Below the pieces are notes generated by a model that was not told the origin of the DNA, searched no databases, and saw only the letters and a list, made by a program, of their open reading frames with translations. Positions 18,031 to 56,205 of a DNA stretch of 64,000 nt are shown here, one piece after another; position 1 is the stretch's first letter, and the number at the start of each line of letters is the position of its first letter. The position numbers and the translations under genes were made by a program. The stretch is from Planctomycetota bacterium (lineage in GTDB: Bacteria > Planctomycetota > UBA8108 > UBA1146 > JAJFFE01): contig JAJFFE010000175.1 of assembly GCA_021776775.1 (NCBI GenBank), forward strand, positions 12,562 through 76,561. The letters run 5' to 3'.

Positions 18031-18113
18031 CACCTCTAGACTCAAACGCGATCACCAACTCGCCACCGGCGTCGAGTTCCTCGCCATGCTCGTGCCCCAC
18101 ATCCAACATCGGA
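18031..18113. repeat. Direct repeat A, copy 1 (~85 bp, about 90% identical to 34171-34250)
   Basis: gactcaaacgcgatcaccaactcgccaccggcgtcgagttcctcgccatgctcgtgccccacatccaacatcgg aligns with 34178-34250 with a 1-nt indel and a few mismatches. Confidence 0.8.
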
Positions 18114-18398
18114 TGTAAGAATAGGATGTACGGCGCGCTCTCCACGACCTTGCGCAAGCGCTTCGGTTGGATCGCCAGCCCGCCGACGCCCGAGGCTTCC
18201 AATTCCGACAACCCCAAATCTACGTTTCGATGACCACTCCGATACCCGATCCGCGTGCACTTCTTCTCGGGAGAGTCGTAGTATTGATCGAATGTCGTCG
18301 AGATGTTTGGCTTGTCCGCTGATCGAATGATATTCGAGTTTGATGAGAACCAAGTAGTCGGCTGGCGGTACGTCGATCGAAAAGCCGCCAAGAGTCAC
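18042..18398 (-). CDS. Hypothetical protein, possibly a gene fragment. Its 3' part overlaps repeat A1.
   Basis: ORF-table ORF. N-terminal MTLGGFSIDVPPADYLVLIKLEYHSISGQAKHLDDIRSIL looks protein-like (K/RDxxDI motif as in nucleotidyltransferase-fold toxins). The C-terminal part dissolves into repeat-A sequence. Confidence 0.3.
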   Translation of the reverse strand: MTLGGFSIDVPPADYLVLIKLEYHSISGQAKHLDDIRSILRLSREEVHADRVSEWSSKRRFGVVGIGSLGRRRAGDPTEALAQGRGERAVHPILTSDVGCGARAWRGTRRRWRVGDRV

Positions 18399-18561
18399 AC
18401 TGATTTCGCTCCTTCATTCCAAGTGACAGCAGAACAACTGCCAGCACAGAATCAAAGAATGCGCTGATCATACGTGGGGGCGCCGTCCGGGTCAGCGACG
18501 AGCTTGACAGCCCCCTTGAGGACGTCCGGACGCGCCTCCCCGCTGCGCTGTCCATTGCGAG

Positions 18562-21066
18562 TTACGGGCAGCCGGAGACGATACAGTCCAACGCATCCGG
18601 AGTCGGGTCCGTGCCGCAGGCTCCCGTCGGAGCGGGCAGTGACGGTGATCCCGGGATGAAGAGGGCCGCTAGTGAGTAGACCGCGTCCGAGATGTCGACC
18701 ACTCCGTCGTCGTTCGAGTCGGTCGCGTCCGTGCACTCGGGAGCGGGCGAAGCGGGGATGAAGAGCGCGGCCAAGGTGAACACCGCGTCCGAAATGTCGA
18801 AGGTCGTGTCGCCGTTGACATCTCCTCGTCGGAATTGATCGATCGTCGCCACCGGACTATCGAGCAGGAACTCGAGGAGCGCGGCCGCGAGCTCGATCTG
18901 GTCGCCGTCGTAACCCCCGAACTCCGTCGACACCGAGCAGACTCTTCCGCCCGAAGTCGGGTAGTAGGCGATCCCGGTGTTGTACACGATCGTCGAGCCA
19001 CCGCTGCCGTCGTCGGTCAGCAGCACGCGCGAGTCGCTCCCGACGTCATCTTCGCCGCCGTTGGCCGGCGCGATCTGATCGATCCAGTCGAGGGACGTCC
19101 CTTGGTCTTGAGTGTAGGTTGCGTCGAAACCGGTCAGGAAGTCACCGCCGATCATCCCTTCGTGGGTGTCGTCTCCATCGAGTGCGTCGGGGTGGACTCC
19201 GTCGATCGCCGCGAAGGCGGTTTGCGGATCGAACCCGAACGTGTCTCCACCCGACGCGTAGATCGCAGTTCCGGCCGCCTGTAGGGCAACCAGGGTTTCC
19301 CCGTCGAGCGGCGACATCGGATGGTTCGCGGGATACGTTCCCAGGATCACCCACAGCACGGCCGGGGGCACAGTGATCGACGACATGCTCGCGGGTCCGA
19401 CGATCACAGGATCGATGCCATGGGCGTTGAGCGCCGTCTCGAGCGCGGCCACGCTGTCGACGAGACCCGAGATACCTTCGCCGTAGAAGATCATGTGGAG
19501 GCCGGTGGCATCCCCGGGCGTCGTGGCCGTGCAACAGGTTTGCTCGGGAGAGTAGCCTGACAACACCGTTTCGATGCACACGTCGTAGGTGGTGTACTCG
19601 TTCAGGCCGTCGATCAACGCCGAGGTCGCGCTGCCGGGCAACGCCGACACCAAGGAACCATCGACGTAGATCAAGATCTCGTCGAACACTTGCGGGTTGT
19701 TCCAGGTGGCGATGATCTGCCCGAGGGAAGGATCGCAGTCCAGGCTATTGACCGGCGGGGCAGCGGGGAGATCGCATCCGACGTTGAGCACTCCGAGTCC
19801 AGTGGCGATGGAACTTCCGCCGACCTGGATCAGGAACTCATCGCCGATCGAGGCCGACTGGATGACGATCTCGGTCTGCGGGCCGCCCGAGTTGTCGTTG
19901 CAGTAGAGCGGCGAAACGCCGGGCACTGGGCAGCTCGTTCCCACCCAGATCGCGAGCCGCGTGTCGAACGCGCTTCCGAACGTGTCGACCGTCACGTCCC
20001 CGTCGCAGGTCGCGGTGTACGTGTACCAAATGTCGAGCGGCGTCGCGAACCCTCCGCACCCTGGCGCGATGCCGTCCGTGGTCGCGCAGATAGTACTGAA
20101 CGGGGTCGTGCCCGCGAACACCGGGATAGCACTGACGCAGTCGTCGTTGATGGGGGCAGCGGTGCTCGTGACGGTGAGCGTGCCGTCTCCCGTGGCGCCC
20201 GAGAAACCCGCGACTTGCACGTAGAGCGTTTGCCCGGCGACGGCGGGGATCGTCAATTCCGCGTTCAGTCCGCAGCTGTCGTTGAGACAATCAAGCGCGG
20301 CATCGCCAGGAAGCGGGCAGCCACTGGTACCATCCCAGACCGCAAGGGTGGTGTCGAAGCTGCTGCCGCAAGTGGCGAACGTCACGTCGGAATCACAGAC
20401 CACCTCGAACCGATACCAGACATCGACCGGGGATCCGGCGCCAGCGCAGCCGCTCGCGATGCCGGACGCCGTGGCCGACGGTGTGATGAACGGAGTCACC
20501 GACGGTTCCGTCACCACGATGGCATCGGCACAGGTATCGTTCGCGGGTGAGGGCGCGGGAGGCGGGGCATCCGAGAGGAACAAACTCCACTCGTTGAGGG
20601 TGCCGGTGTCGCCGCCGAAGTCGTCGAAGACCTCGAACGTCCACTCCCCCACTGAGTCCTCTCCGTGGAAATCCGACATCGCGCCGGGACCGAGAGCCTG
20701 CATCCAGTAACCCAACCCGGCCGTGAGCTGGAGGGGGTCGAACGCCATGCCGGAAGACGCGAACGTCACCAGAACATCATCGGCCCCCGCGCCGGCGTTC
20801 TGCATCAGTTTGACCGTGGTCCCGGCGGGCGAGGTCACGTCGATGTCGAGGTCGGATTGAAACGTGTGCGCAATGTCCACCCCGACCCGGATGTCCTGGA
20901 TCGTGAGCGCGTCCGCGATCGTCATCGTGTCGGTCACCGTCTGGTAATCGAGGATCGCCGATCCCGGAGCGCTCGATTGCACGATATCGGTGGCCCAGCC
21001 CGGACTCGCCCAGACCACGGCCACCCCGATCACCATCACCCTGGTCACACTGTCGCGGAGTCTCAT
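18562..21066 (-). CDS. Secreted multidomain protein: signal peptide, proprotein-convertase P-domain-like module, two pre-peptidase C-terminal (PPC)-like domains, C-terminal dockerin-like module
   Basis: Signal peptide MRLRDSVTRVMVIGVAVVWASPGWA (ATG 21066; the ORF extends to 21153). IQDIRVGVDIAHTFQSDLDIDVTSPAGTTVKL is P-domain-like. PANDTCADAIVV...VWYRFEV and PINDDCVSAIPV...IWYTYTA are PPC-like. C-terminal RRGDVNGDTTFDISDAVFTLAALF...DSNDDGVVDISDAVYSLAALF...CGTDPTPDALDC. Paralog of 48001-50682. Confidence 0.8.
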   Translation of the reverse strand: MRLRDSVTRVMVIGVAVVWASPGWATDIVQSSAPGSAILDYQTVTDTMTIADALTIQDIRVGVDIAHTFQSDLDIDVTSPAGTTVKLMQNAGAGADDVLVTFASSGMAFDPLQLTAGLGYWMQALGPGAMSDFHGEDSVGEWTFEVFDDFGGDTGTLNEWSLFLSDAPPPAPSPANDTCADAIVVTEPSVTPFITPSATASGIASGCAGAGSPVDVWYRFEVVCDSDVTFATCGSSFDTTLAVWDGTSGCPLPGDAALDCLNDSCGLNAELTIPAVAGQTLYVQVAGFSGATGDGTLTVTSTAAPINDDCVSAIPVFAGTTPFSTICATTDGIAPGCGGFATPLDIWYTYTATCDGDVTVDTFGSAFDTRLAIWVGTSCPVPGVSPLYCNDNSGGPQTEIVIQSASIGDEFLIQVGGSSIATGLGVLNVGCDLPAAPPVNSLDCDPSLGQIIATWNNPQVFDEILIYVDGSLVSALPGSATSALIDGLNEYTTYDVCIETVLSGYSPEQTCCTATTPGDATGLHMIFYGEGISGLVDSVAALETALNAHGIDPVIVGPASMSSITVPPAVLWVILGTYPANHPMSPLDGETLVALQAAGTAIYASGGDTFGFDPQTAFAAIDGVHPDALDGDDTHEGMIGGDFLTGFDATYTQDQGTSLDWIDQIAPANGGEDDVGSDSRVLLTDDGSGGSTIVYNTGIAYYPTSGGRVCSVSTEFGGYDGDQIELAAALLEFLLDSPVATIDQFRRGDVNGDTTFDISDAVFTLAALFIPASPAPECTDATDSNDDGVVDISDAVYSLAALFIPGSPSLPAPTGACGTDPTPDALDCIVSGCP

Positions 21067-21531
21067 CGAGCGCCTCGCCTTCGCACCGTTCGGACCAACG
21101 AGACGGAATGCCGGATCCGCGAGGATAGCCCGCCAAGAGTTCTTCTCGGTCATCTTGTTTCCGGTACGGTCCGAAATGGAATCGTTGGAGGCGTGCTCCT
21201 CGTGGAAGATCGTTCCGCGATCGCCCTCCGGAGCCCCGCTGCGTGTGGCTCTTTGAGTCGAAAAGTCCTATCGGTTCGCGGCGGCGATCGACGGCTTGTG
21301 ATTCTTCTTTGTCTTCATCTTCTTCGCCCCCGACTTCTTTCCTGCGCTCATGAATCAATCCAGTTCTGCAAGTCTGATCGACCGCGTGAAGAGCCCGCGG
21401 GTCCGGCCGGGCCGCATTTGGATGAACACGGCTGTGGCGTCCGCGGCGGAGCGAAACCACATGGCCTGAGTGCGGAGCCGGTTCTATTCTGATATCCTGA
21501 TTCTTGCCCCCAACATACCGATTTTTACGGA

Positions 21532-24514: not shown

Positions 24515-24955
24515 GTGCTCATGGACTCCAACCTTGTCTCACCGCAACCCACCTCAAAGCGAGTGGCCAGGGCGACCGTCTCGCTCGTCGGTGCCGCGGT
24601 GCTCATCCTCGCCGGACTCCTTGCGCATCGACACTACTGGTCCTGGGGATACGCAGACGAGCCGACCATGATCACGGTCCTACCCTTCGGAGTGACGGAG
24701 CTGTTCCAAGGCACGACCTATCTCCCGACGGGCCTTCGTCTAGACACCGCGTTCCCCCGCTTCGCCGTGTTGGGCGGACCGGAACGTGTCGTCGTCGTTT
24801 CCGATTCGCGCGGCGAGGTCTGTCGGTTGGGTGGTCTCGTTTCGGTGCAGATGAGTCCCGGCACTATCTCCTCGCCGAACGAGGCGCGTCACTGGCGCCA
24901 CGACATCTCCGAGGAAATCCGAAGTAGGTTTAGACCGCCGACCCGCAGTCGATGA
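24515..24955 (+). CDS. Hypothetical membrane-anchored protein, possibly the 5' part of the degraded WD40 gene. Contains repeat B1.
   Basis: 146-aa ORF with TM VSLVGAAVLILAGLLA. Bases 24630-24678 are the copy of repeat B. Confidence 0.35.
   Translation: MLMDSNLVSPQPTSKRVARATVSLVGAAVLILAGLLAHRHYWSWGYADEPTMITVLPFGVTELFQGTTYLPTGLRLDTAFPRFAVLGGPERVVVVSDSRGEVCRLGGLVSVQMSPGTISSPNEARHWRHDISEEIRSRFRPPTRSR
24630..24678. repeat. Direct repeat B, copy 1 (~50 bp, 2 mismatches to 36970-37018)
   Basis: cgacactactggtcctggggatacgcagacgagccgaccatgatcacgg versus cgacactactggtccgggggatacgcagacgagccgaccatgatcacgg. Confidence 0.85.
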
Positions 24956-25868
24956 ACGAGGACGGCTCGGATCACACCCACCGTGACGATCGAGCTGCCC
25001 GTCACGTCATCACCAACGACGCCGACGGACCCGCGTCCGTATGGGATGTCGCGAAGGGAGAGAAGATCGCCACGCTGGAAGGTCCCGTGACGCGATTCAA
25101 GGGAGCCGCGATGTCTCCGACCGGCACGCACTTCGCCGCGACGGACGACGATCGATTGGTGCTCTGGCATATCCCGAGCGGTCGACGGATCGCCGAAGCG
25201 ACATCGCCGCGACGAATGTCGGGACGGATCGCGTTTTCATCAGATGGACTCCATGTCGTCTCGGCGCACGGCGTGAACGCCGAGATTCGCAGCATCGAAT
25301 CCTTCGGTGACCCGCAGGCCATCGGCGACGAGGATCATGTCACCGGTTCACGACGGTGCCAACTTCTCAGCGAATCGTTACGGCGGGCCTGCGCGCTCTG
25401 GGGGTGTACGATCTCCCGTCCGGCGCGCGCGTTCGCACCATCCCGACCGAGAGCCCCGTGGTGGGGCCGATGCGCACCGCCGCCGACGGACGAACGATCG
25501 CCGCGGTATGCGAGGATCGCTCCGTCAAGGTCTGGGGACTCGACGGAACCCCGGGCCCGCGATTGATCGGGCACCGGGATGATGTCATCGACTTCGTCTT
25601 CGAGCGTTCCGGTCGTCGGATCGCCACGATCAGCCGGGACCGTACCGCCCGTCTCTGGCGAGCCGACGATGGCACGCTGCTCGAGACCGTGCGTGTCGCG
25701 AGTATGCCGACCGCGCCGATGATGGGGAGCAATGGTTGGTCGGCACGTCGGCCGGTCTCTTGTTGATCGGCGACATCGGCCCCGATTCCCGTACGCCGAA
25801 CGAAATCCAGCGACTGATCGAAGAGCGGAATCCGTGGCAGTTCGACGAGGGACGACTCGTCCCGCGTT
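24952..25868 (+). pseudogene. WD40-repeat protein disrupted by at least two frameshifts
   Basis: WD40 units lie in three consecutive frames: ASVWDVAKGEKIATLEGP, LVLWHIPSGRRI and IAFSSDGLHVVSAH in frame 1 (24952-25330); SVKVWGLDG, GHRDDV and ARLWRADDGTLLETV in frame 0 (25356-25766); tail GEQWLVGTSAGLLLIGD...stop in frame 1 to 25868. Confidence 0.6.
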
Positions 25869-26211
25869 GAAGGGAGCTTCATTAAGAACTCTGTTGTCGG
25901 GACTGGCGTCGCAAGGAATGGGCCGAGCGGATGGTCGAGCAGGTGCTGCTCGAAGTCCCCTACGCCCCCCTTGCCTTCACCATCCCGGAAGCTCTTGCTC
26001 GGCTCTGAACCAGGTCACTCTCTGCGGCAGCCAGCGTTCGCACGCCGCTTCGAGTCACAATGTAGAAGCGAACCTGTCCTTGCGTCGGCAGGGGGTACCC
26101 GGTGTCCTCTTCCATCTCGCCGAGGTACTCGGCTGCGTCGCGTAACGTCTTCTTGGTGAGCGTTGCGACGTCTAGATGTTCACCGGACCCGAAGAAGCCC
26201 CCGCCGCTGAA

Positions 26212-29200
26212 CTATGGGCAGGGGGCACCGCACTCCAACGTGTCAGGAGTGGGGTCGACACCGCAGTTTTGGTCACCAGGACTTGGGGGAAGGGCGCCAC
26301 TTGAGAACAAGGCGGAGAGGGTAAAAATCGCGTCGCCAATATCGATATTCCCGTCGTCGTTGGCGTCCGCCGAGTCCTCGCACGACGGGTCCGCCCCCCC
26401 GGAAAACAGGTGGCTCAGAGTGAAGATGGCATCTCCGATGTCGAAGAGCGTGTCACTGTTTGCATCGCCGCGCCTGAACGTTGGCGACGTACAAACATCG
26501 AGTACACCGTCACCGTCGCTGTCGAGTGACGGGTTCGACGCAATCTGGATCTCGTCTTCGACGCCGTCACCGTCGCAGTCGTTGAAGTCTAGCTCCTGCG
26601 CGCATTCGGGGAGGTCGCCGACGAACGGAACGGCTCCGAGATCATCAATAGTACTCGACTCACCGCCGAGTTCGATGGCGATAGAGCTAGAGCTCAACCC
26701 GAAGTCGGCCCACGGAGTGTTGCTTTCGCAGCTAGGTGCCACCAGCAACGGATCGATGTATGTGCTCATGGACGGGGCCAAGTTGCTATGGAACGCGGGT
26801 CCCGCAATCGCAGAGCACCAACCCAAGTTGTCGTAGAAAAAGTCTCCCCCCGCCGGAAGCACGGTGCCACTGTACGCTTGCCAGTGCTCGTTCTCTGTGA
26901 ACACATTGTCGTGAATTCGAAGTGGCGTCAGGGCGGCTCCGATGAAATGCAAGCCGCCCCCTTGATTCACAATGGAGCTTCCTGTGTTCGAAAAGATCGT
27001 GTTGTGCCGAATGATCGCTCGGACGCCATCGAGGTAGAGACCCGCCGCGAAGAACGAAGGGGGAGGTGGCGCCATGGGGCCCTTGCCATCTATCTCGCAA
27101 AGCTGCTGGACCTCATTACAGTAGATCAAGTTGTGTTCGACGGTAGCGCGGCACTTGTCGAGCAGCATGATTCCCCCACCGACCTGCGAAACATTGCGTC
27201 GCACGATGTTGCCGCAAAGCGTAAACGGCGTATCGTTCTGACTCTCGACAAATACGCCGCCACCTTTGGAGTCACAGCCAAGGGTTCGATTCGAATCGAT
27301 GTCATTACCGAGCACATCGGGCGCAACGTATCGACCCAAGTAGATCCCTCCACCAAAGTCTTCGGACAGATTGCTACGGATCGTGTTGTTCGCAACGACG
27401 CCAGTAGCAATTGGAGGATCCAGGGGGTCCATCGGGAAATCGGTGATCCAACAGACTCCACCGCCGAACGATACGGACGACCCCGGAGAGCCTGGATCGG
27501 GTTCAGATCCGTGGTTTACAATTTCGTTCCCACGAATCTCGACGTGCCCGACCGTTCGAATGTAGATACCACCTCCCGCCCCGGCAGCTTCGTTTCCCGC
27601 GATCAGGCTGTCGACGATCGTGGCGTCCGCGTCAATGAGACAAATGCCGCCGCCCGATCCGGCCGTGATGTTTCCACTGATTTCGCACGCCCGAATCGTT
27701 GGATTCGAGCCTTCGATAATCGTGATGCCTCCGCCGTGATCCAAGTCAGCTTGTTCGTTCTTGGTGAAGCGACAGTTGTATATCAATGACTCCGACGAAG
27801 ACCCAATTTCCAGCCCTGAGTTGCCGTGGATGAATGTGAGATGGCTCACGCAAACAGTGTCGTCGCAATCGGCGATTCTCAAGGTTGCCTCGGTAGGCGT
27901 CCCAGTGGCTAAGGCTGAAACCGCGACTCCGTCACTCGTGGTGATGGTGACCAGCGACTTGTTGTTCAATTCCAGTGGTCCCGCATGGTCGGGGGCCACG
28001 TCGTCGCCTTCGAATACGATGCAGTCTCCCGGAACAGCATTGTCGAGGCATAGCTGCCGTTCGACTTGCGTCGCATACGGAGAAACCAGGATCGGTGCGA
28101 CCACGTACTCCATGGAAACTGTCGCTACCGCTTGGCCGCAGTCGGTCTCGAAGCTGACTTCGGCCGGGATCGTAGTTCCATCAGAACAATCACAACCCGG
28201 CGCAATCGCCGGCATCGTCACCAAGACTTGATCTCCCGTCGCGTCGACGACTTCCGCCAGTGAAGCTCCGAACGCCGAGATCACGGTTACGGTGAGAGTC
28301 GAGTCGAAACCGACACCGCTAAACGTAACGTCGGTTCCGCCGGTGGTCAGCAGATCCGCCGGGGTACCCAAGATTCCGAACACAGTGGGTAGAGCGACCA
28401 GCTCGATCGGAGCCGTTGTCACCTGCCCGCACGCGTTGGTGGCTTGCACCGTGTAGGCTCCGGCGTCGTCGGATCCAGCGGGATCGATCAAAAGTTGCTC
28501 CGAGGTGGCGCCGGCGATTGCGATCGCGTCTTTGTACCACTGGATCATCGCCGTCCCCTCGACATCGACCGCCAGGTCGATAGCTCCGCAAAATTGAACC
28601 GGGCCCGCCGGCAGCGTCACGGTCGGAGGCTGAAGCACCGTGACGGTCACCGCTTGGCACGGGCCCATGCACCCTGAGGTGTTCTGGACTCGCGCGTAGT
28701 AGATGGTGCTTTCTGACGGCGCGACGAGGTAATGCTCGCCGACGGTCTCGGAGCCGCCGAAGCACGCTTCACTCCAGACGACGATATCGAGCGGGTCCGT
28801 GGGCGCCTCTGCCTCAAGCGTGATCGACTCCCCAGCGCAAATAGTGACGTCGCTGGAAATCAAAGTAGCCGAAGCCACGGCAACGAACGTAACATCGACG
28901 GCGAGGCATTGATCGCTTTCGCAGTCAACGTCCAAGCTCTTCGCGTAATACGTCGTCGCGGGGTACGCCGTGGACGTAACGCCGATTGCGACGCCGCTGC
29001 CTGTCTCACCGACGACGGTTCCGGCGTTTACTCCACAACCCCCCTCGTACCAACGAATCGTATTGGTAGGATCAGCGGCAGTCGCGGTTAGAAACACCTC
29101 GGTGCCGTAACACACGAGCGACTCTGAAACCGAAGCCGAAGTCGGAACCGCGGGCGTCGCCCCGAACACAATAGTAATGCTGGCGCAGTCCGGGCTTGCG

Positions 29201-30756: not shown

Positions 30757-30976
30757 GCGTACACCTTCTCGTCCTGGTTGCGTATCGTCACGCCGAGCGG
30801 CGTGTGTACGGCCCTGCGCCGTGCGAGAAGGAGACGGGCAATAAATCAGGTAAAAAGTTTTTCGCCTTTCGCAACGACAACGCTCGTTTCGAGTTGCGCC
30901 GATCGATTCGCCCGTCATCCTTTGACGTTCCGGGTGGGACCAAAGCAATCAGCGCGGTGGATAGGGTTGACGCTTC

Positions 30977-31549: not shown

Positions 31550-31591
31550 CACGTCTAGGTACACGGCTGGCAACTCGGTTGGAGCTACATC

Positions 31592-39795: not shown

Positions 39796-39797
39796 TC

Positions 39798-41455: not shown

Positions 41456-41463
41456 TCGAGCCT

Positions 41464-44173: not shown

Positions 44174-44207
44174 GTCGACGCAACCCTAACGAAAAGTGAG
44201 AGTATCC

Positions 44208-44495
44208 ATGGCAAGGGCGAGCTGGTTCGACGATGCGACCGAGGTCCCGCACTTGGCGGAGAAAGTAAACGAGCTCGATGCATTCGCGAACGCGATGGCC
44301 GACGGCCGCGTCGACAAGAACGAACTGGAGGCGCAACAGGAGCGACTGATCGCGGCCATGAAGACGGTCGAGGCCGACCTCAGTGACGAACAGCACGCCA
44401 AGGTGACGGTACTCCTGGTCGAGCTGACGGCGTACGACATCATGCGCACGCTCCACGAACTCCAAGTCGAACGACTGCGCGGCAAGTTCAAGTAG
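44208..44495 (+). CDS. Small all-helical hypothetical protein (95 aa)
   Basis: ORF from the table (44196..44495). Start taken at MARASWFDD. Charged helical composition. Last gene of the co-directional pspA cluster. Confidence 0.45.
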   Translation: MARASWFDDATEVPHLAEKVNELDAFANAMADGRVDKNELEAQQERLIAAMKTVEADLSDEQHAKVTVLLVELTAYDIMRTLHELQVERLRGKFK

Positions 44496-44559: not shown

Positions 44560-46911
44560 GTGCTCACCCGCTATCCGGCCGCGCTACTTGCGGGCGTGAC
44601 TCGTCGACGCAAGAGACGACGCGAACATCGTGAGAGCGAAGACAACTCCCATGCCGACGACGGCGAGTACGGCGGGGAGACCTGTCGCGTCACTGTCACA
44701 GCTTCCCCAGCCTTCGACGCGAGTAGCTTGTCGAGGTTGCTCTCCTCCCTGGGCCTCGCGGCTGGAATCGGCATCGGGGCGGCTCTTCAGGGCGTCGCTG
44801 GTGCATGGCTGGTTCGGAAGTTCGTCGGCATTCCCACGCGGCTGATCGACTCGAGGCAGGTGTTTGGCTTCATGGCCGTCGGCGGCCTGGTCGGTTGTGT
44901 GGTTGCGCCGACCTGGGGTGTCTCTACCCTCGTCGTGTGGGGTCTTGTTCCCCATGACGACTTCACATTTCACTGGTTCACGTGGTGGGTGGGTGACGCG
45001 ATCGGCGTCTTGATCTTTGCGCCGCTTCTGGTGCTCTGGCTCGAGCCCAACAATCGAGTCGCTCGTGGCGCCCTGGCCTGGATCACGACCGCGTCGTGTC
45101 TGACTTGTGCGCTGGCGACGGTCCTCTACTTGATCGCAAGCAATGCCGAGCAGAATCGCCTGGAGCAAGACTTCCACCGCCGGGTCACTCCAGTTCATCA
45201 GCGGATCGCGAATCGCCTAGACTCCTACGCTGCGGCACTCGAGTCGATCGAGAGCCTCTTCTAAAGCTCAATGGAGGTTGATCGGGGCGAGTTTCGCAAG
45301 TTCACCACGAAACTTCTGAGTCGCTATCGCGGCCTGCAGGCCGTTTCGTGGAATCCGATCATCGAGGCGGGATATCGACTCGCCTATGAACAGGCCATGC
45401 GAGTCGAGGGGATCTCCGGATTTCAGATCAAGGAGCGTGACGAGAGTGGGCGCTTGGTGCGCGCTGGTTCTCGCCCCGAGTACGTGACGGTGCATTTCAT
45501 CGAGCCACTCGATCGCAACCAGGCGGCTCTGGGTTTCGACGTGGCTTCGGACTCGACGCGGCGAAGCGCGATCGAGCGCGCGTTCACGACGCGTCTCCCT
45601 GCCGCCACCGCCCGCATCACTCTCATACAGGATGACGAGAGTCAGTTCGGGGTCCTGATACTCGATCCACTGCTGGAGGTAGATCAGAACGGACACGAAG
45701 ATGTCCGGGGGTTCGTGGTGGGAGTGTTTCGCCTGGCGGACATGGTGCGGGAGTCGCTCGCGACCCATGATCTCGATGATCTCAGCTTGACCATGTCCGA
45801 TCTTTCGGCCGAGCCAGGGAGCCGGCTGCTGTTTGCGAGTTCGCCATCAGATCCGACCGCTTCTGCTGCTTCTGATCCTGGTGCGACACTTCTTCAACAG
45901 CGGACGGATGTTGAGTTCGCCGGCCGGAATTGGGAGCTCCATACTCTCGCGAAGCCGAGCTACCTGCGTTCGACACGGAGCCTCGACGCTTGGCTCATCC
46001 TCGTGGCCGGTTTGTTGTTTACGGGACTACTCGGCGCCTTCTTGCTGGTGCTCAACGGCAACGCTGTGGTCGAGGCCAGGCGATCGACCGAACTGGCCAC
46101 GACGAATGACGAGCTGACTCGTTCGGTCACGGCTCTCCGGGAGGCAGAGAACGCACTGCAGCTGTCGAACAAGGAGCTGACGCGGCACAACGACGAGATG
46201 GAACAGTTCATCTACACCGCCTCTCATGACTTGAAGACCCCCCTGGTGACGATCAACGGTTTCATGGCCGTTCTGAACGACGAGATTCAAGCGGGTGATC
46301 AAGACCAGATCGCGGATTCTATGAAGCGCATCAAATCGGCTGCGACGCGGATGGGGCAACTGATCGAGGATCTTCTGCAGATCAGCCGCATCGGTCGCAC
46401 CGAGGACGAGACGGAGATCGTCGATGTGGAATCTCTCGTCGCCGAGCTCGTCGATGAGCGCCGCCATCAGCTGAGTCAGCGTGACATCGCGTTCGAAGTT
46501 CAGCCGGGCCTGCCAGCCTCGATGGCCGATCGAACCCGACTCATGCAGGTCTTCGACAATCTGATCGGTAACGCTGTCAAGTACGGTTGTGCAGAAGGTC
46601 CGGGCAAAATCTCGATCGGCGGGACGGTCCGCGAAGGGCTTTCAGAGTACTTCGTACGGGATACCGGCCCCGGGATTCCGCCCGAGTTTCACGATAGGGT
46701 GTTCCGACTCTTTACTCGACTGAAGAGCGACAAGGATGGAACCGGAGTCGGCCTGGCGATTGTCAAGCGAGTCGTGGAGCACTACGGCGGCATGGTCTGG
46801 GTAGAGCGCGACCTTCCGGTGGGGGCAGGGTTTCGTTTCACCATTCCCCACGGCGCCGACGCGGAAGTGGACGACGCTGAAGCCAGCGACCGAGAAGTCT
46901 CGCTGGCGTAG
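44560..46911 (+). pseudogene. Sensor histidine kinase (MASE1-like membrane module, CHASE domain, TM, HisKA, HATPase_c). Interrupted by an in-frame TAA at 45262-45264 and 5'-truncated at the repeat C1 junction.
   Basis: 44560-45261 and 45271-46911 are in the same frame, separated by one stop. The upstream part has about 4 TM helices (partial MASE1) and its first ~40 codons are antisense to repeat C1. The downstream part has a CHASE pattern (YVTVHFIEPLDRNQAALGFDVASDSTRRSAIERA), a TM, H-box HDLKTPLVTINGF, and N/G boxes (GNAVKYG, DTGPGIP, GTGVGLAIV). Confidence 0.65.
44585..44682. repeat. Direct repeat C, copy 1: duplicate of the 3' end of the DUF368 gene at 56110-56205 (~85-90% identical, about 98 bp)
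   Basis: Minus-strand translation gives PAVLAVVGMGVVFALTMFASSLASTSHARK-stop. The authentic DUF368 C-terminus is PAVLAVVGVAAVFALTMFASSLASTSHARK-stop. Confidence 0.85.
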
Positions 46912-47238: not shown

Positions 47239-47600
47239 ATGGCCGAGGGCCTCCACGCGCTCGGGTCACCGGCGTATCATCCCCGCCGCCCGGGCAACGC
47301 CCTCACCCGCATCGTCGAAGATCATCTCGATGAGCTGCGCAACTGCTACGACGAACGGTTCGCCGGCACCTACGGTCCCCTCGCGCCGCGCGTGCTCGAT
47401 TTGTTCGAGCGCTTCGCCCGCTGTGGCGATGCTTACTTTGGTCTTCTTCGGTTGCGATGTGAGGATTGCGGTCACGAACGGTTCCTTCCGTCTCGTGCAA
47501 AGCGCGCGTGCTCTGCCCGTCTTGTGGCAAACGAAGGTCGATCGAATGGGCCGAGCGCATGGTCGAGGAGGTTCTGCCCTACCGTGAGTCGCGGTTCTTC
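47239..47600 (+). mobile_element. IS91/ISCR-family transposase remnant: N-terminal zinc-binding domain only, with an internal frameshift
   Basis: RCGDAYFGLLRLRCEDCGHERFLP in frame 1 continues in frame 0 as SCKARVLCPSCGKRRSIEWAERMVEEVLPYRE. This is the IS91 Zn-binding domain pattern (RCG..GF.R.RC..CGHE...SCK.R.CPSCG.RR....A..LV.EVLP). No HUH/Y2 catalytic domain follows. Confidence 0.65.
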
Positions 47601-48000
47601 TCCACCTCGCCGATGGACCTGCCGCCTATTCGCCCTACGAATCGGGGTCTATCCCTCCGGCTCACCGCGCCAGTGACGAAGCTGTCGAGGACACCCTGGT
47701 CGCCGCCATCCTCACCGGTGGCCGAACCAAAGCCGCAATTGCGGTTTCCAAGATCGACTTCACCGCTTTTGTCAATTAGCGTTCGAGACATTCAAAGAAC
47801 ACCAGCAGAAATAGGGTTTCAGTGGACCCGCGGGTCCACTGTCCGCATTCGGCTCATTGTCGGATTCCCAATGGAACTGCGCCGAGAAAGGAGGGATGCG
47901 CAGCGTTCGCTTCGAGGCCGCACGGCCTGAAGCCGGTCTCGCTATTCACGACCCAGTTCGCAAGGGGCTACTTCCACCACTCGAGATATGGAGTACAGGC

Positions 48001-50682
48001 ATGAGAATACGTCGACTGAGAATAGAGTTCTGCGTCCTCCTCATCGTCATTGCCGCCGGGACCCTGCAGGCCCAGAGCATCCTCGTCCTAGACTATGGCA
48101 GTGAGGACAATGTTGCCCAGGACGCCCTGAACAATTTGGCGCTTCCGTTCACGCTTACGTCTGACCCGCCGTCGTTCGATACCGAGTTGACCGGCGGCAC
48201 TGAGTGGGATCTCGTGATCGTCGACAACCCGTCGAACTCGCTCACGGCAGGGGTAGAAACGAACCTGACAGACTACATCAACAACGGCGGGAAGCTCCTC
48301 TTCTCGTACTGGGATCTCGACGTGGCCGATCCCCTCTTGCAAGCGGCACTCGGAGTCGCGGCGACCACCAGCCTCACCACGCCGACCGAGATTCACGACT
48401 GGGGCACCGGCTCATCTCTATGGGCGCGCCCGAACGGTATCGGCAGCCCCATCACCGTCGAGGCGGACTCCTGGCTCAACAACGGGGACGCGATGACGGC
48501 AGCCCCCGGAGCGGTCGCAATCGGTGGCTTCACGCCGGGAGTAACGGCCGGCGAGGCGGCGATCATCGTCGGAAACGGCGGACGTACGATCACCTTCGGG
48601 CACGAGTTCGACAGTCTCGACGAGCCGGCCATCACCGGCATGATCGAAAACGCGGTTCAGCTCTGCCTCCAGAACAAGCACGTGCTACTCGTCGAGGACA
48701 CTTCGGTGGGATTCAGCACAACCGCGCACGACGCGCTCGACGCCGAAGGACTGATCTTCGACCAGGTCTCCCTTGCTGGCTTCAATCCCGCGCTCACGAG
48801 CGGCATCGCTTGGGATCTGGTAGTGGCCGAGATCGCGAACTTTCCGTTCGTGACCGACGACCTCGAGGCGTACATCGCCAGCGATGGAAAAGTGTTCATC
48901 TCGTATTGGGATTTGAACAACGCGGTTTCGCTCCAGGCGTCCCTCGGAGTGAGCGTCGCGTCGAGCTTCCTCGCTCCCATGGAAATCTTCGACTGGGGGG
49001 CCGGCGGATCGGCCGGTCAGATCTGGACGACGCCCAACGCGATCGGTGCGAGTATTCCCATGACTGCAGACGCCTTCGCAAACAACGGAGATCGCCTCGT
49101 CGGAGTCGACGGAGTCGAGGCCGGCGGTTTCACACTGACCCCGACACCCAACGAGGCAGCTGTCGTCATCAAGAACGATGGGAACTGCATCACGGTGGGG
49201 CACGATTTCATCAGTCTGCAACAGCCCGAAGCGACGAACTTTGTCCAGAACTGCATTCATAGACTCTGCAATCCGCCTCCCGCAAACGATGATTGCGCGA
49301 ACGCGCTCGCCGTAATCGAAGGCGACCATGCCTACTCGAACACTCTCGCCACGACCGATGGCCCGAGCCCGTGCGGAGCGATCGGGAGCGACATTTGGTA
49401 TAGCTACACGGCGCCCGAGGCGGGCACCGTAACACTCTCCACATGCCTTCAAGCGACCTACGACACCGCGCTCGCGATCTATCCTGGCGATCCGTGTCCG
49501 GCCGACGCCGTCGACGCGCTGGCTTGCAACGATGATTTCCCAGGATGCGGGTTAACCTCCACAACGACCTACACTATGGCTTCCGGCGAGACGATCCTGA
49601 TCCAAGTCGGAGGCTTTGCCGGCGGCATGGGCGATGGAACGCTCACCATCTCGTTTGCGCCCGCGCCGCTCCCGACCGACGTTTCGGGGTTCGATGTGGT
49701 GTTGGTCAACGGTGAGGGAGACGTCGACGGTGGTCTAGTAGTGAGCCAGCTCGCCTACACGGCTGCGTTGACCACCGCCGGACTCAGCTTCATCGAAATT
49801 GAACCCAACGTGCTCGGCCAAACACTGGTTGGTTGCCCGGCCGTCGCTTGGATCTACAACAATGGCACGTTCCCGGATGACGCGCCAGTCGACGCGGCGA
49901 TCATGGAACACCTCCGCGATTGCGTGCTCGCCGGTAACGCCGCGATGGCCAACGGCGGTGACATGTGGGGCTTTCTTCCGCCGACCGCGTACGATGACAT
50001 CGACGGGATCGACACCGACGCAGCTTCCGACGGTGGCGACACCGTCACGGATCTGGAAGGCGTCGCTGGCTCCTCGCTCGATGGTTTCGTGAGCGCCTAC
50101 GTTCAGGATCAACTCGGCAACGACTGGACCGACGTCTTGGCGCTCGCCGCCATCGGCGCCGGCACCGAGATCATGGGCGAGAACCAGGAGCTCGCCCTTT
50201 TCTCACCGGCTGCCGCCGCCGCAGCCGGTGCCGACTACAACGTCGGCGTCTACTACCCGCACGACGAAACCGTCGCCCCTGGCGCCGGTGACACGTTCTC
50301 GATGTCGATCGAACCCGCTGGCGTGGACGACCCGGCCACCTTCCTCGCCGATTGTTTCGCGCTCGTGTTCTTCCCGGCGCCGGACGGTGAAGTGTTCTCA
50401 CGCGGAGATTGCAACAACGACGGGTTATTCGACATCGGCGATGCGATCGCGGAACTCGACATCTTGTTCGGAGGAACCGGTCCGGCGGCGTGCGATGACG
50501 CGTGCGATGCGAACGACGACGGCTTGTTCGACATCGGAGACCCGATCTCCGTGCTGAGCACACTATTCGCCATGGGTGACTCCCCACCGGCTCCGTCATT
50601 CCCGGAGTGTGGCCTGGATCCGACGGACGACTTGCTCGGTTGTGACACTCAACCGGTCGAGGCGTGCGCCGATCTGAAGTAG
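48001..50682 (+). CDS. Secreted multidomain protein: signal peptide, two tandem ~250-aa domains of unknown function, PPC-like domain, C-terminal dockerin-like module. Paralog of 18562-21066.
   Basis: Signal peptide MRIRRLRIEFCVLLIVIAAGTLQAQS (ATG 48001). Two repeated WDLVIVD...LLFSYWDL / WDLVVAE...VFISYWDL units. PPANDDCANALAVIEGD...IWYSYTAPEAGTVTL is PPC-like. C-terminal SRGDCNNDGLFDIGDAIAELDILFGG...DANDDGLFDIGDPISVLSTLF...CGLDPTDDLLGC. Confidence 0.85.
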   Translation: MRIRRLRIEFCVLLIVIAAGTLQAQSILVLDYGSEDNVAQDALNNLALPFTLTSDPPSFDTELTGGTEWDLVIVDNPSNSLTAGVETNLTDYINNGGKLLFSYWDLDVADPLLQAALGVAATTSLTTPTEIHDWGTGSSLWARPNGIGSPITVEADSWLNNGDAMTAAPGAVAIGGFTPGVTAGEAAIIVGNGGRTITFGHEFDSLDEPAITGMIENAVQLCLQNKHVLLVEDTSVGFSTTAHDALDAEGLIFDQVSLAGFNPALTSGIAWDLVVAEIANFPFVTDDLEAYIASDGKVFISYWDLNNAVSLQASLGVSVASSFLAPMEIFDWGAGGSAGQIWTTPNAIGASIPMTADAFANNGDRLVGVDGVEAGGFTLTPTPNEAAVVIKNDGNCITVGHDFISLQQPEATNFVQNCIHRLCNPPPANDDCANALAVIEGDHAYSNTLATTDGPSPCGAIGSDIWYSYTAPEAGTVTLSTCLQATYDTALAIYPGDPCPADAVDALACNDDFPGCGLTSTTTYTMASGETILIQVGGFAGGMGDGTLTISFAPAPLPTDVSGFDVVLVNGEGDVDGGLVVSQLAYTAALTTAGLSFIEIEPNVLGQTLVGCPAVAWIYNNGTFPDDAPVDAAIMEHLRDCVLAGNAAMANGGDMWGFLPPTAYDDIDGIDTDAASDGGDTVTDLEGVAGSSLDGFVSAYVQDQLGNDWTDVLALAAIGAGTEIMGENQELALFSPAAAAAAGADYNVGVYYPHDETVAPGAGDTFSMSIEPAGVDDPATFLADCFALVFFPAPDGEVFSRGDCNNDGLFDIGDAIAELDILFGGTGPAACDDACDANDDGLFDIGDPISVLSTLFAMGDSPPAPSFPECGLDPTDDLLGCDTQPVEACADLK

Positions 50683-51432: not shown

Positions 51433-53103
51433 ATGCCAAGACGACTCGCCGCGCTTCTCTTCTGCTTAGGGATGTCAGCACCGGTGCTGGCCCAAGCCCC
51501 GCAGATTTCGTCGTTGAGCGAGGCCACGCTTACCCGAAGTGGCCGGCTCGAAGTTTACGGGAGCGGATTCGGAACGCTGCAGGGAACGAGCCAGCTGTTC
51601 GTCGATGACTTGGAAGCCATCGTCACCTCGTGGGCGAACGACGAAATCCACGGCTATATCCCGGAAAGTGCGGCGGTCGGGTCGGTTCCCGTTCAAGTCG
51701 TCGCATCCGCGGGATCGAGCAACGTTCTCCCGCTCGACGTGACTCTTCGATCGGCGGTGGGTCACACGCGTTGGCGATTCGAGATGGACTCGCCAATCTC
51801 GGGCGCCTACACCGCGGTGGGTCCCAACGGCGTGGTCTACGCCACCGACATCGAGCGGATGTACGCGCTGTCGGCCACTGGCGCGCTGCTTTGGGTTCTT
51901 CCCGGGGCCGGCGGCGGGCGACCGATCGTCTTCGGAAACGACGGCACGCTCTACACAGGGTCGGACAGTGGCTTGGTCTCCGTCGACCCGGCCGGCGCGT
52001 TGAACTGGGAGTACTCTTCTGCCCCCCTCGCGATCTATGTCGCGGGTCCCGGTGTCGGGCCCGATGGAAACATCTACGGCGCTCAGGACGCCGTCCTCGG
52101 CGGAGCGTTGTACTCGCTCGATCCGAGCGGCGCTTTGATCTGGGATCTCCCGGGTGTGCTGGGATTGACGCTGGGTGGCAACGCCAACTGGAAGATCTCC
52201 TTCGCGGCCGATCGCTTCTACACCGGGGTCACTTGGGACGTGCATTGTTTCAGTCTCGACGGCGATCAACTCTGGAGCGCCGGCGACTTGGGTATTGCAA
52301 CTTCGTCTCTGGCAGAGCTGGATCCGCAAGGACGAGTCATCACGAGGTGGGCGCAGACCGGATTGAGGGCGTTGACCGAGGACGGAGATACCGACTGGCT
52401 CATCACGCCACCCGGAACCTTGAGCACGACGACGCAGCCGGTAGTCGGTCCCAACGGCGACATCTACATGGGCAATTTTTTCGGTTCCAACGTCTGGGCG
52501 TTCTATCCTGACGGCAGCCTCAAGTGGTTCCGCGATGACGCACCGGGAATCATGCAAAAGCTCGGAGTGAGTCCCAACGGCGCGGTGCTCGTCGACGGGG
52601 GCGGTCCCGGTTTCGGCTCCCCCGGCTTCTTCCGCGGATTCGATACCGACAACGGCGACCTCTTGTGGCAAGTCAACCTCTCCACGGTCGCGGGTTGGGA
52701 TGAACTCGCGTGGACGAACCAGCCAGCGTTCACGACCAACAGTGCGACAGCGTTCGTCACCTCCCGATTCGCCGGCAACGAGAACCACGGTTACTTGTAC
52801 GCGCTGCAAGTGGGAGACGACCAAGACCCGCTCTTCGTCCGCGGAGATGTCAACGCGGATGGATCGCTCGACATCTCGGATGCGGTCGCGTTGCTCGCAG
52901 CCCTCTTCGGCGGAAGCGTCATCGTCTGCGACGACGCGGCGGATTCCAACGACGACGACCTTCTCGATATCTCCGATCCTATCTCCGTCCTCGCCGCCCT
53001 GTTCGGATCGCCCTCGGTCCCGCCCGCGAGTCCCTTCCCGCTCTGCGGCAGCGACCCGACCCCCGGTCTTCTGGACTGTGTCGAGTTTCCTGCCTGCCCG
53101 TGA
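51433..53103 (+). CDS. Secreted protein: signal peptide, IPT/TIG-like domain, PQQ-like beta-propeller repeats, C-terminal dockerin-like module
   Basis: Signal peptide MPRRLAALLFCLGMSAPVLAQA. PQISSLSEATLTRSGRLEVYGSGFG is IPT-like. Repeated LW/PDG/NIY propeller blades. C-terminal VRGDVNADGSLDISDAVALLAALFGG...DSNDDDLLDISDPISVLAALF...CGSDPTPGLLDC. Confidence 0.8.
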   Translation: MPRRLAALLFCLGMSAPVLAQAPQISSLSEATLTRSGRLEVYGSGFGTLQGTSQLFVDDLEAIVTSWANDEIHGYIPESAAVGSVPVQVVASAGSSNVLPLDVTLRSAVGHTRWRFEMDSPISGAYTAVGPNGVVYATDIERMYALSATGALLWVLPGAGGGRPIVFGNDGTLYTGSDSGLVSVDPAGALNWEYSSAPLAIYVAGPGVGPDGNIYGAQDAVLGGALYSLDPSGALIWDLPGVLGLTLGGNANWKISFAADRFYTGVTWDVHCFSLDGDQLWSAGDLGIATSSLAELDPQGRVITRWAQTGLRALTEDGDTDWLITPPGTLSTTTQPVVGPNGDIYMGNFFGSNVWAFYPDGSLKWFRDDAPGIMQKLGVSPNGAVLVDGGGPGFGSPGFFRGFDTDNGDLLWQVNLSTVAGWDELAWTNQPAFTTNSATAFVTSRFAGNENHGYLYALQVGDDQDPLFVRGDVNADGSLDISDAVALLAALFGGSVIVCDDAADSNDDDLLDISDPISVLAALFGSPSVPPASPFPLCGSDPTPGLLDCVEFPACP

Positions 53104-53164
53104 TCTCCAAGAGCCCCTCAACCGTCATCCCTCCGACCGGAGTGGTTTGCGAAACGGAAAACCC

Positions 53165-54508
53165 ATGCGCATCACACTCATTGCGTCCCTCTTGCTCCTC
53201 TTCTTTTCGTCCACCGCTCGCAGCCAGGTCGAGTACATACTTCACATCATCACCCCGTTTCCCGGCGGAAGCTCCGGCGAAGCGTACGCGTGGGACGTCA
53301 ACGACGACGGAACCGCCGTCGGCTTGGCGACGGCAAGTACCTATCACGGTTTCTACTGGACGGTCGACGACGGCAAGATCGATCTCGGCGAAGGCGACGT
53401 GCGCGGCATCAACAATCTCGGCGTCGGAGTGGGCAACTCGCTCCAATGGTCGGACCCGACCAGCTTCTCGGTGATCCCAGCTCCTAGCACCTACTACTGG
53501 GCGGTGCACGCGCTCGACGTCAGTGATACGGGCATCGTCGTGGGAGAAGCGGTGCATCAGTACTCGGGTTCGACGTCGATTCAAACCGCGTTCGTGTGGG
53601 ACGAGGTCAACGGGACTCGCGACCTCAGCGCGCTCGGCGTACCGTCGGCGTTCATCGCGCACGCCGTCAACGACGCCGGCCAAATCGTCGGCGACACGAG
53701 TTCTTTCGGCAGCACGAGCACGGCGTCGGCTTTCTTGTTCGACCTGGCGACCAGCAACTACGTTGAACTCGGAAGTCTGCAGCCCGGTGGCGTCGGCAAT
53801 GCGTCCGCGCGCGACATCAACTCGAGCGGGACCGTGACCGGATACTCCTCGACGCCCGAGCTGTTCGTCGGCGACCACGCGTTCATCTGGACTGAAGCCG
53901 GCGGCATGCAGGACATCGGCGTCCTCGGCGTCTACTCGGACTTTCTGACCCTCGAAGACTCTCACGCCTACGGGATCAACGACGACGGAACCGTCGTCGG
54001 GAACAGCACCTCACCGAATGCAGCCACCAGCTGGGACGCGCGTCACGCATTCGTCTGGGACGCAACCCAGGGGATGCGGGATCTCAACGATCTCTGCGCT
54101 CGCCCGAGCGGGTACTACCTGATCAACGCCACCGCGATCAGCAACACGGGTTGGATCTGCGGAACGGGCTTCGGGAGCGCCGGCGGTGGGTTGGCCTCCG
54201 GGTTCGTCCTCGAGCCGATCGTCACGACCGCAGCCACGTTCGTGCGCGGCGACTGCAACAGCGACGGTCTCGTCGACATCGGTGACCCGGTGTTCCTCCT
54301 CTCGGCACTGTTCACCGTCGACGCGGCGCCGACGTGTGACGACGCGTGCGATACCAACGACGACGGAGGACTCGACATCGGCGACGCGATCCACGGCCTG
54401 AGCGCCCTCTTCGGCGGCGGCCCCACTCCGACGAGTCCCTACCCCAACTGCGGGACCGATCCGTCCACCGACACCCTGGAGTGCGCGGCGTTCGAAGCGT
54501 GTCCGTAG
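53165..54508 (+). CDS. Secreted HAF-family extracellular-repeat protein with C-terminal dockerin-like module
   Basis: Signal peptide MRITLIASLLLLFFSSTARSQ (ATG 53165). HAF-type repeats (AYAWDVNDDGTAVG, HAYGINDDGTVVG, AHAVNDAGQIVG). C-terminal VRGDCNSDGLVDIGDPVFLLSALF...DTNDDGGLDIGDAIHGLSALFGG...CGTDPSTDTLEC. Confidence 0.8.
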   Translation: MRITLIASLLLLFFSSTARSQVEYILHIITPFPGGSSGEAYAWDVNDDGTAVGLATASTYHGFYWTVDDGKIDLGEGDVRGINNLGVGVGNSLQWSDPTSFSVIPAPSTYYWAVHALDVSDTGIVVGEAVHQYSGSTSIQTAFVWDEVNGTRDLSALGVPSAFIAHAVNDAGQIVGDTSSFGSTSTASAFLFDLATSNYVELGSLQPGGVGNASARDINSSGTVTGYSSTPELFVGDHAFIWTEAGGMQDIGVLGVYSDFLTLEDSHAYGINDDGTVVGNSTSPNAATSWDARHAFVWDATQGMRDLNDLCARPSGYYLINATAISNTGWICGTGFGSAGGGLASGFVLEPIVTTAATFVRGDCNSDGLVDIGDPVFLLSALFTVDAAPTCDDACDTNDDGGLDIGDAIHGLSALFGGGPTPTSPYPNCGTDPSTDTLECAAFEACP

Positions 54509-55263: not shown

Positions 55264-55870
55264 ATGGCCGACAAGAAGAAGTCACCCAAGAAGTCTAAGA
55301 GCTTTGGCAGCTTCGCCGATCTCGCGAAGGCGATGGGGGTCGAAGGCGAAACCCCGGACGAGCCCGTGGCGGAGCCCGGTTGGACGTTCAAGCGCGCCGG
55401 CGAGGAAGAGGTCGATCTCGAGCTGGAGACCCAGATCGATGTCGGCCTTCGTCGGCGACCGCGGGCGTTCGGCCCGATGGAGCACGGCCCGCTGCCGTAC
55501 CGGAACATCGACTCCGAGGAGATGCAGCTCCTCAAGTCGTTTCGCGTCCGTACGCTGTTTCCGGCGGACGTCGCGGAGCGGGTGGCGGCGCTACCCGATG
55601 ATCCCGACCCGAGCGAATTCGCCGAGCGGCTCGACTTGCGCGACCAGTTGGTCTTCACGATCGACGGTGCGGACGCCAAGGACTACGACGACGCGATCTC
55701 CATGAACCGACTTCCTGGCGGCAACGTCGAGCTCGGCGTGCACATTGCGGACGTCGGTCACTACGTGACGCCGGGAACGCCGCTCGACGATGAGGCGATG
55801 GAACGGGGCACGAGCATCTACGTCGCCGACCAAGTAGTGCCGATGCTGCCCGAAAAACTCGACCTCGCCA
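55264..55870 (+). pseudogene. rnr: RNase II/R-family exoribonuclease, 5' fragment only. Ends a few residues into the RNB domain.
   Basis: LDLRDQLVFTIDGADAKDYDDAISM...VHIADVGHYV...TSIYVADQVVPMLPEKL matches the start of the RNB catalytic domain. Sequence after EKL is unrelated and stops at 55986. No continuation in any frame. Confidence 0.6.
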
Positions 55871-56109
55871 AGGGTTCCCATCGCAGAGCCCACTCCAAAC
55901 GGATAGATCTTGAAGGCAAACGTCGTGCACGATGTTGGCGCCAAGGGGTTGCAGAGCAGGACGTCGAAGTTCGTGGTACCCAGTAACGTGTTGACGTTGT
56001 TGCCGCCGAAGGTGCAGTTGACGAACCTGCTGGCAGTGGCGTCGTGACAGTACCGGGGGCGACCACACGCCTTTGGAACTGCTCTTTCGCGCGCTGCGTC
56101 TCGACACCC

Positions 56110-56205
56110 CCTACTTTCGGGCGTGGCTCGTCGACGCTAGGGACGAGGCGAACATCGTGAGTGCGAAGACCGCGGCGACTCCGACGACGGCGAGTACGGC
56201 GGGGA
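56110..56205. repeat. Direct repeat C, copy 2. This is the authentic 3' end of the DUF368 gene.
   Basis: See copy 1 at 44585-44682. Confidence 0.85.

Follow-up and report, generated by a model that had tools for sequence, protein, structure and literature searches.

Short direct repeats of probably independent origin in a decaying accessory region of a Planctomycetota genome

Do short direct repeats scattered through the same flexible stretch of a genome record one history of integration, or several unconnected ones? The question is raised by a 64,000-nt stretch of contig JAJFFE010000175.1 (positions 12,562–76,561 of the forward strand; assembly GCA_021776775.1) from a Planctomycetota bacterium, hereafter the window, to which all coordinates below refer. 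A previous reading of these data, made from the sequence alone (the sequence-only reading), described three interleaved pairs of direct repeats, A, B and C, as markers of rearrangement junctions. In pair C, which duplicates the 3′ end of a DUF368 gene, it saw the footprint of site-specific integration or of rolling-circle mobilization of the IS91/ISCR type. We consider it probable, with moderate confidence, that A instead represents relics of an IS91-family transposase gene, that C marks DNA joined to the end of the DUF368 gene and that B is an ectopic copy of a short piece of another gene. The three pairs would then be independent leftovers of unrelated origin in a decaying accessory region, that is, ordinary genome wear, and we hold this more general view about as firmly.

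The three pairs are present essentially at the coordinates first reported for them, and both self-blastn and counts of their cores confirm them far beyond chance. All are in direct orientation and sharply bounded, without further similarity in the flanks. By blastn, pair A extends over ~97 bp (18018–18112 and 34153–34250; 87% identity with 1-nt indels; self-blastn E = 8e-20), of which 18041–18112 and 34176–34250 are supported at the protein level; the left limit of A1 was trimmed to 18041 because positions 18019–18039 belong to a neighbouring unit that resembles a miniature inverted-repeat transposable element (MITE). Pair B comprises 53 bp with two mismatches (24625–24677 and 36966–37018; E = 6e-13), and pair C 115 ungapped bp at 82% identity (44584–44698 and 56111–56225; E = 3e-23), including a perfectly conserved block of 26 nt (44654–44679 and 56181–56206). 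Cores of 26–33 nt from A, B and C each occur exactly twice in the window with up to three mismatches allowed, against 0 expected from 100 shuffles, and none has a match in IMG/VR. With two copies each in 64 kb, the pairs do not behave as a generic family of repetitive extragenic palindromes or MITEs. The folding z-scores of A and B on both strands (−1.4 to +1.1) are not significant. A diversity-generating retroelement was considered and rejected, given that the mismatches of pair C are not adenine-specific and that no reverse transcriptase was found in any scanned open reading frame (ORF); in pair A, only four of the five substitutions are at adenines, of which there are ~22.

Pair A is the stretch kept by two differently truncated relics of one IS91-family transposase gene and not a junction marker. 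The family assignment comes from a composite protein query that matched two PF04986 (Y2 transposase) proteins, P0123 and P0124, from unrelated metagenomes; the A1 and A2 regions align with these proteins at 59–92% identity (summed E = 1e-21 and 2e-18, respectively), and the alignments fall in a region that follows the catalytic core towards the C-terminus. Relic 1 (18041–18221, + strand), a piece of the C-terminal region that contains A1, is truncated at both ends and frameshifted near 18113; in tblastn, it matches residues 78–101 of P0123 at 92% identity and residues 104–139 at 67%. Relic 2 (34084–34271, + strand), which contains A2 and is recognized by both P0123 and P0124, is interrupted by an in-frame stop near 34090, shifts frame by 1 nt at 34212 and corresponds to residues 46–88 of P0123 at 79% identity and residues 89–108 at 80%. 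Since the two relics cover residues 78–139 and 46–108 of P0123, their overlap (78 to ~101) equals repeat A. At the DNA level, relics 1 and 2 are 76% and 81% identical (blastn) to an insertion sequence (IS) from an independent metagenome, L013. A search for IS91 relatives of P0123 found none. A coding reading of A on the minus strand was rejected, as the corresponding ORF (17861–18391) has no homologue and the plus strand encodes the transposase.

As junction markers, the pairs fare differently: C stands in substance, A is coding sequence of dead transposases whose family has relatives in other metagenomes, and B may at most border a second insertion. Because A consists of the coding sequence of two IS91 relics, the overlap of the A and B intervals, which had been taken as a sign of successive events or segmental duplications, needs no special explanation. 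Copies scattered at unrelated loci, named in the sequence-only reading as the observation that would speak against it, are close to what is found for A, a mobile-element family with metagenomic relatives; B and C have two copies each in the window.

A fourth pair of direct repeats (25916–25949 and 47544–47577; 34 nt, 91% identity, E = 6e-4) is a relic of the N-terminal zinc-binding domain of the same IS91 family. Its right-hand copy lies within a frameshifted relic at 47239–47600 (+ strand) that narrowly passes the gathering score of PF14319 (matched in two frames; E = 3e-6 to 7e-6) and is devoid of the catalytic domain. Its left-hand copy falls in a patch at 25890–26005 (+ strand; EWAERMVEQVL…) which is too short for Pfam and is linked to the 47.5-kb relic only by the shared EWAERMVE motif. 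The window thus carries four IS91 relics, all on the plus strand and in fragments of 35–360 nt. Every one is frameshifted and truncated, none reaches into the catalytic HUH or twin-tyrosine motifs, and no oriIS or terIS end is recognizable beside any of them; they are pseudogene fragments incapable of transposition. The related metagenomic contig L013 contains, 80 nt 3′ of the transposase stop, a 48-nt perfect GC-rich palindrome (838–887) that might form an oriIS hairpin. No counterpart of this palindrome was found beside the relics of the window; a weak match on both strands within an AAA ATPase gene (43919–43955; 84%, E = 6e-4) is probably due to chance.

By contrast, pair C involves the end of a functional gene. 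C2 (56111–56225, − strand) is the genuine 3′ end of an intact DUF368 gene (56111–57058, − strand; PF04018; 100% identical to P0001; DUF368 being the polyprenyl-phosphate transporter family). C1 (44584–44698, − strand) is a detached copy of the last 32–37 codons and the TAG stop, without frameshifts or premature stops. The sequence-only reading was therefore right in identifying C2 as the true C-terminus plus stop, and C1 as a duplicate recognizable at the protein level which lies antisense where a sensor kinase, here identified as a MASE1-CHASE histidine kinase, is truncated at its 5′ end. The similarity ends exactly at the stop codon on one side and, on the gene-upstream side, at 44698; upstream of the 26-nt block, six codons are weakly alike (9/18 nt; a stretch of ~19 nt), which puts the block a little inside the edge. 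Over the 32 codons before the stop (96 coding nt), the copies differ at 15 positions, 11 of which are third codon positions. All seven changes that stand alone are silent, neither stops nor indels occur, and the only internal amino acid changes are three adjacent conservative ones in a membrane helix (MGV vs VAA). Among 200,000 simulations with 15 random substitutions, four or fewer amino acid changes without a stop occurred at a frequency of ~4e-4. Because of this mostly synonymous pattern, the two copies diverged while each still formed the end of a functional gene, in separate genomes or alleles, and not through in-place decay of C1; the duplicated segment thus shows divergence under selection, of the kind that separates a donor from a recipient. 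Furthermore, the C-terminal tail of DUF368 proteins is very variable among homologues, and that of a 65%-identical relative is already different, so C1 must stem from a close relative.

The block between C1 and C2 spans 11.4 kb and, as noted previously and supported by Pfam, holds an IS91 remnant and truncated genes. Adjacent to C1 is a sensor kinase pseudogene (44731–46911, + strand; MASE1-CHASE-HisKA-HATPase by Pfam; atypical codon usage) which has lost approximately the first 65 MASE1 positions: its match begins at profile position 66 of 299, within ~33 nt of the C1 edge. An in-frame TAA (45262–45264) separates its MASE1 domain from the CHASE-HisKA-HATPase part. The boundary 44698/44699, where the DUF368 fragment abuts the 5′-truncated MASE1 kinase, is an illegitimate joint of two truncated genes. 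Near C2, a 3′-truncated fragment of an RNase II/R-type (RNB) gene (55264–55912, + strand) matches only positions 1–100 of the 326 in the Pfam RNB profile and ends ~200 nt from the DUF368 stop, with no continuation past ~55912 in any frame. Between the two lies an open stretch (55915–56085, − strand; …FVNCTFGGNNVNTLLGTTNFDVLLCNPL…) which looks beta-helix-like by eye only. No tyrosine or serine recombinase (integrase) domain was detected by Pfam in any ORF of the 44.56–56.11 kb region or elsewhere in the window.

Codon usage of the genes was scored against housekeeping genes, which served as the training set, and groups were compared with non-training genes by Mann–Whitney tests. To the left of C1, an operon with housekeeping-like codon usage (37228–44495, + strand; by Pfam, pspA-like, substrate-binding-OmpA, ABC transporter and AAA ATPase genes, followed by one for a 99-aa protein) scores 0.21–0.30 and ends 88 nt from the C1 stop; to the right, DUF368 and the gene for tyrosyl-tRNA synthetase (TyrRS) score 0.31–0.34. 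Inside the block, scores are 0.09–0.11 for the truncated kinase, 0.18–0.21 for genes encoding dockerin-tailed proteins and 0.25 for the RNB fragment, and the genes of the interval score below the outside non-training genes (p = 0.035). Removal of the C1–C2 block would leave the stops of the 99-aa gene and DUF368 convergent and 88 nt apart. The TyrRS–DUF368 adjacency is kept in the nearest relative and therefore C2 is at the ancestral position; we infer that the pspA-AAA operon was the original convergent neighbour of DUF368. Among six relatives, TyrRS is the only common neighbour of DUF368, and only in the closest one, and downstream synteny is not conserved. A search of 5.8 billion proteins recovered the DUF368 protein itself once, at 100% identity, and no relative closer than 66%, and the GTDB species collection none closer than 45%.

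Taken with the selective signature of the two gene ends, this arrangement leads us to infer the following scenario. Approximately 11.4 kb of accessory DNA would have been joined directly downstream of DUF368, between this gene and the pspA-AAA operon. The incoming DNA would have supplied a DUF368 end, and the earlier end would have been left behind as C1, the tail of another DUF368 allele, functional at one time and derived from a close relative, that was cut off and fused illegitimately to the kinase. The likeliest route would be recombination that used DUF368 homology as its anchor and was completed illegitimately at the other joint; alternatively, a circular fragment would have been rescued by a single crossover. 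Orphaned gene 3′ ends at effector loci of the Rhs, contact-dependent inhibition (CDI) and type VI secretion system (T6SS) kinds have been attributed to homology-facilitated illegitimate recombination (PMC5361080). This process is the best fit for pair C and accounts for both the joint between truncated genes and the absence of an integrase; an active integrase system is less likely.

Pair B has a different context. B1 (24625–24677, + strand) lies inside a hypothetical gene (24521–24955), at residues 36–53, between a membrane helix and a conserved domain. The product of this ORF is identical (100%) to P0125, and its sole relative, P0126, aligns from the residue right after B. B2 (36966–37018, + strand) stands alone: its 53 nt lie between genes, in DNA rich in stop codons, and the pspA-like gene begins 210 nt further downstream. 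Both substitutions between the copies are non-synonymous in the B1 frame, and the flanks of B2 show no similarity to the B1 gene on either side. Pair B is probably a recent 53-bp ectopic copy of part of the hypothetical gene. It might mark the border of a second insertion, at 24.7–37.0 kb; a pair of IS91 relics lies between B1 and B2, as do the genes with the least typical codon usage in the window (scores 0.00–0.12; p = 3e-4). The possibility that a paralogue of the B1 gene left B2 behind was rejected for lack of flanking protein similarity, and that of B being part of an IS91 element for lack of similarity to L013 or to L014. Searches around B2 for Rfam families (E ≤ 1) and terminators returned nothing, there is no significant fold, and the B core has no match in Joint Genome Institute (JGI) metagenomes. 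An apparent tRNA-like T-arm upstream of B2, noticed by eye, lacks proper pairing, and an 8-nt direct repeat around B2 is at chance level; both were rejected. Directly downstream of the B1 gene, a WD40 beta-propeller gene in overlapping frames (24952–25566 and 25356–25766) is probably a frameshifted pseudogene.

How do these conclusions compare with other explanations of pairs B and C? As a footprint of the 3′-end-duplication kind, pair C qualifies insofar as a duplicated gene end brackets a block with an IS91 relic, but there is no integrase and C1 sits on an illegitimate joint, which makes clean attL/attR sites doubtful. It is unlikely, in our view, that C1 and C2 are the attR and attL of a decayed integrase island which targeted the DUF368 3′ end, brought a replacement gene end and later lost its integrase and arm sites by deletion. 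Such an island would account for the direct repeats, one of which completes the target gene, for a 26-nt identical core followed by a diverged, synonymous gene end up to the stop codon, where the similarity ends, and for native-like codon usage on both outer flanks. However, the window encodes no tyrosine or serine recombinase, the truncated genes at both inner ends (the kinase within ~33 nt of C1, RNB ~200 nt from C2) leave no surviving arm sites, and the core has no match in IMG/VR. IS91/ISCR-type rolling-circle mobilization, in which one-ended circles carrying IS91 together with neighbouring DNA and a short host segment (B or the end of DUF368) are rescued by homologous recombination, seems to us rather improbable. 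In the model proposed for ISCR1 and the 3′-conserved segment of class 1 integrons, rescue of such a circle duplicates the segment. IS91/ISCR elements have oriIS and terIS ends and are thought to mobilize adjacent genes (PMC13393415). The B and C intervals, both enriched in genes with atypical codon usage, each hold one or more IS91 relics, all on the plus strand, and the repeats are direct, as this mechanism would have it. Yet no oriIS, terIS or catalytic HUH/Y2 part survives, so that element boundaries cannot be placed, there are several illegitimate joints per interval instead of the single one expected, B is neither in nor downstream of the related IS in L013, and the fusion of C1 to a truncated kinase is not predicted. 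The more specific proposal that pairs B and C are the flanking scars of two successive IS91-family rolling-circle captures, rescued via short host homology, appears equally doubtful.

For the set as a whole, it is very improbable that assembly chimerism made the junctions, because the repeat copies differ by 4–18%; with longest exact runs of 26–33 nt, no collapse or mis-join is expected in a de Bruijn graph, and mis-joins leave one copy, not two. The sequence does come from a lone 79.4-kb contig of a metagenome-assembled genome without close relatives and shows many abrupt joints between truncated genes, but its dinucleotide composition, GC content and dockerin gene families are coherent over the window. 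It is, in our view, extremely improbable that the pairs were left by an ancient segmental duplication involving a block with A, B and the fourth repeat. These three pairs have the same order and orientation in both sets (18.0/24.6/25.9 kb vs 34.2/37.0/47.5 kb), as such a duplication would produce, but a comparison at word size 9 reveals nothing else in common between the sets, the intervening genes are unrelated and intact, the three identities (87, 96 and 91%) are far apart, and A and the fourth pair are coding sequence of mobile elements, explained without duplication. No collinear protein similarity was seen between 18–26 kb and 34–48 kb. Several observations nevertheless weigh against our own account, in which A is a transposase relic, C a displaced gene end and B an ectopic copy. 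It leaves the shared order of A, B and the fourth pair as a coincidence; the 26-nt perfect block near the gene-upstream end of C resembles a site-specific core; the RNB fragment is housekeeping-like in codon usage, so the C interval is not uniformly foreign; and the atypical block at 26.2–35.5 kb does not end exactly at B1 or B2. In addition, the collections searched contain no close relative, which leaves the assignment of the incoming side at the 44698/44699 joint tentative.

The setting of the repeats is that of a flexible region between conserved flanks. The window has a G+C content of 63% and, by Pfam, housekeeping genes at its left end (0–16 kb: DapF, ThiL-like AIR synthase, ThiE, GNAT and OYE) and right end (56–64 kb: DUF368, TyrRS, ChaN, HAD, SIS and LCAT). 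The ~38 kb in between (18–56 kb) encode dockerin-tailed secreted proteins, sensor kinases, a module with an extracytoplasmic function (ECF) sigma factor and a Ser/Thr kinase, the pspA-ABC-AAA operon and many gene fragments; this is an accessory mosaic of pseudogenes, IS91 relics and acquired genes, which has probably been hit repeatedly by IS91-family elements and eroded by later deletions. No tRNA or tmRNA fragments were found at the junctions (ARAGORN), no Rfam match to a structured RNA or riboswitch reached the gathering score anywhere in the window, and tblastx of the whole window gave only noise.

At the left edge of A1 lies a MITE-like unit of 168 bp (17872–18039; strand not assigned) with 21-nt terminal inverted repeats, CTAGAGGCCCGGCCGAAAAGT, which are 86% complementary, and a long imperfect palindrome inside; among A, B, C and their neighbours, this unit alone is MITE-like. 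It sets the left edge of A1, and the edges of the relics are truncation points. On another NCBI contig, the reading frame of a truncated GAF-HisKA gene ends by running through a second copy; residues 366–427 of P0122 match the unit at 85% amino acid identity, and the contig of P0122 probably belongs to the same genome as the window. On its other side, transposase relic 1 adjoins, at 18221/18225, a C-terminal relic of a P0121-like gene (18225–18401, − strand; tblastn 81% over 59 aa, E = 5e-25; blastn vs L012 72%), which is truncated on both sides. This fragment looks nucleotidyltransferase-like by eye but has no Pfam match.

The dockerin-tailed proteins form a secreted family with at least six members, each with a dockerin-like repeat in two copies at the C-terminus and a Cys-rich tail behind it (18562–21153, 26212–30948 and 34561–35487, all on the − strand, and 47857–50682, 51433–53103 and 52700–54508; also 7777–8011). 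Their tails are ~60–68% identical to each other at the nucleotide level and account for most of the remaining repeats of the window (families D1/D2, inverted pairs). The ECF sigma factor gene (PF07638) is followed by two ORFs, for a Ser/Thr kinase and a TPR protein, which overlap each other by 4 nt (30977–33735). No genes of the window deviate more in codon usage than these sigma factor, kinase and TPR genes, and in a relative, L008, the module is a single fused 884-aa protein encoded beside DUF368.

Overall, this is ordinary mosaic decay, and the significance of the locus goes little beyond annotation. Short repeats of high identity within one flexible region can differ in origin, and to interpret them together as nested att sites would be a mistake. 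Pair C provides a clean example of how, in a duplicated gene end of 32 codons, the pattern of synonymous changes tells decay in situ from the import or displacement of an allele. Should more genomes of this lineage become available, the DUF368 3′ end would be a sensible place to look for insertions that vary between strains. ISCR-like gene accretion is documented mainly around antibiotic-resistance genes of Proteobacteria. If the two pairs B and C did after all flank successive IS91 captures, such accretion would also build ordinary accessory regions, with dockerin and signalling genes, in Planctomycetota, and insertions would recurrently target the DUF368 3′ end.

Comparison with known systems places the locus among familiar processes. 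The relics resemble the IS91 family (HUH/Y2 rolling-circle elements related to ISCR) in matching PF14319 and the C-terminal region of PF04986 proteins at 79–92% amino acid identity and in being present in several copies, but they are short and frameshifted and lack the catalytic motifs, oriIS and terIS. As in complex class 1 integrons with ISCR1, an element of a rolling-circle family is enclosed in a block on whose two sides part of the host sequence recurs in direct orientation; here, however, only a remnant of the element is left, there are no resistance genes and no oriIS boundary, and the duplication measures 53–115 bp, not kilobases. With elements bounded by attL/attR at the 3′ ends of genes or tRNAs, the block shares a direct repeat that restores the target gene and a perfect core beside a diverged replacement end, whereas it has no recombinase and no arm regions, and its inner ends are both occupied by truncated genes. 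The orphaned 3′ ends of Rhs, CDI and T6SS loci likewise combine an intact upstream gene with an older end shifted past acquired DNA and no integrase (PMC5361080); the locus described here differs from them in that the gene encodes a DUF368 membrane protein and not a toxin with a variable tip, that the displaced end encodes a nearly identical protein segment and that a single displacement is seen.

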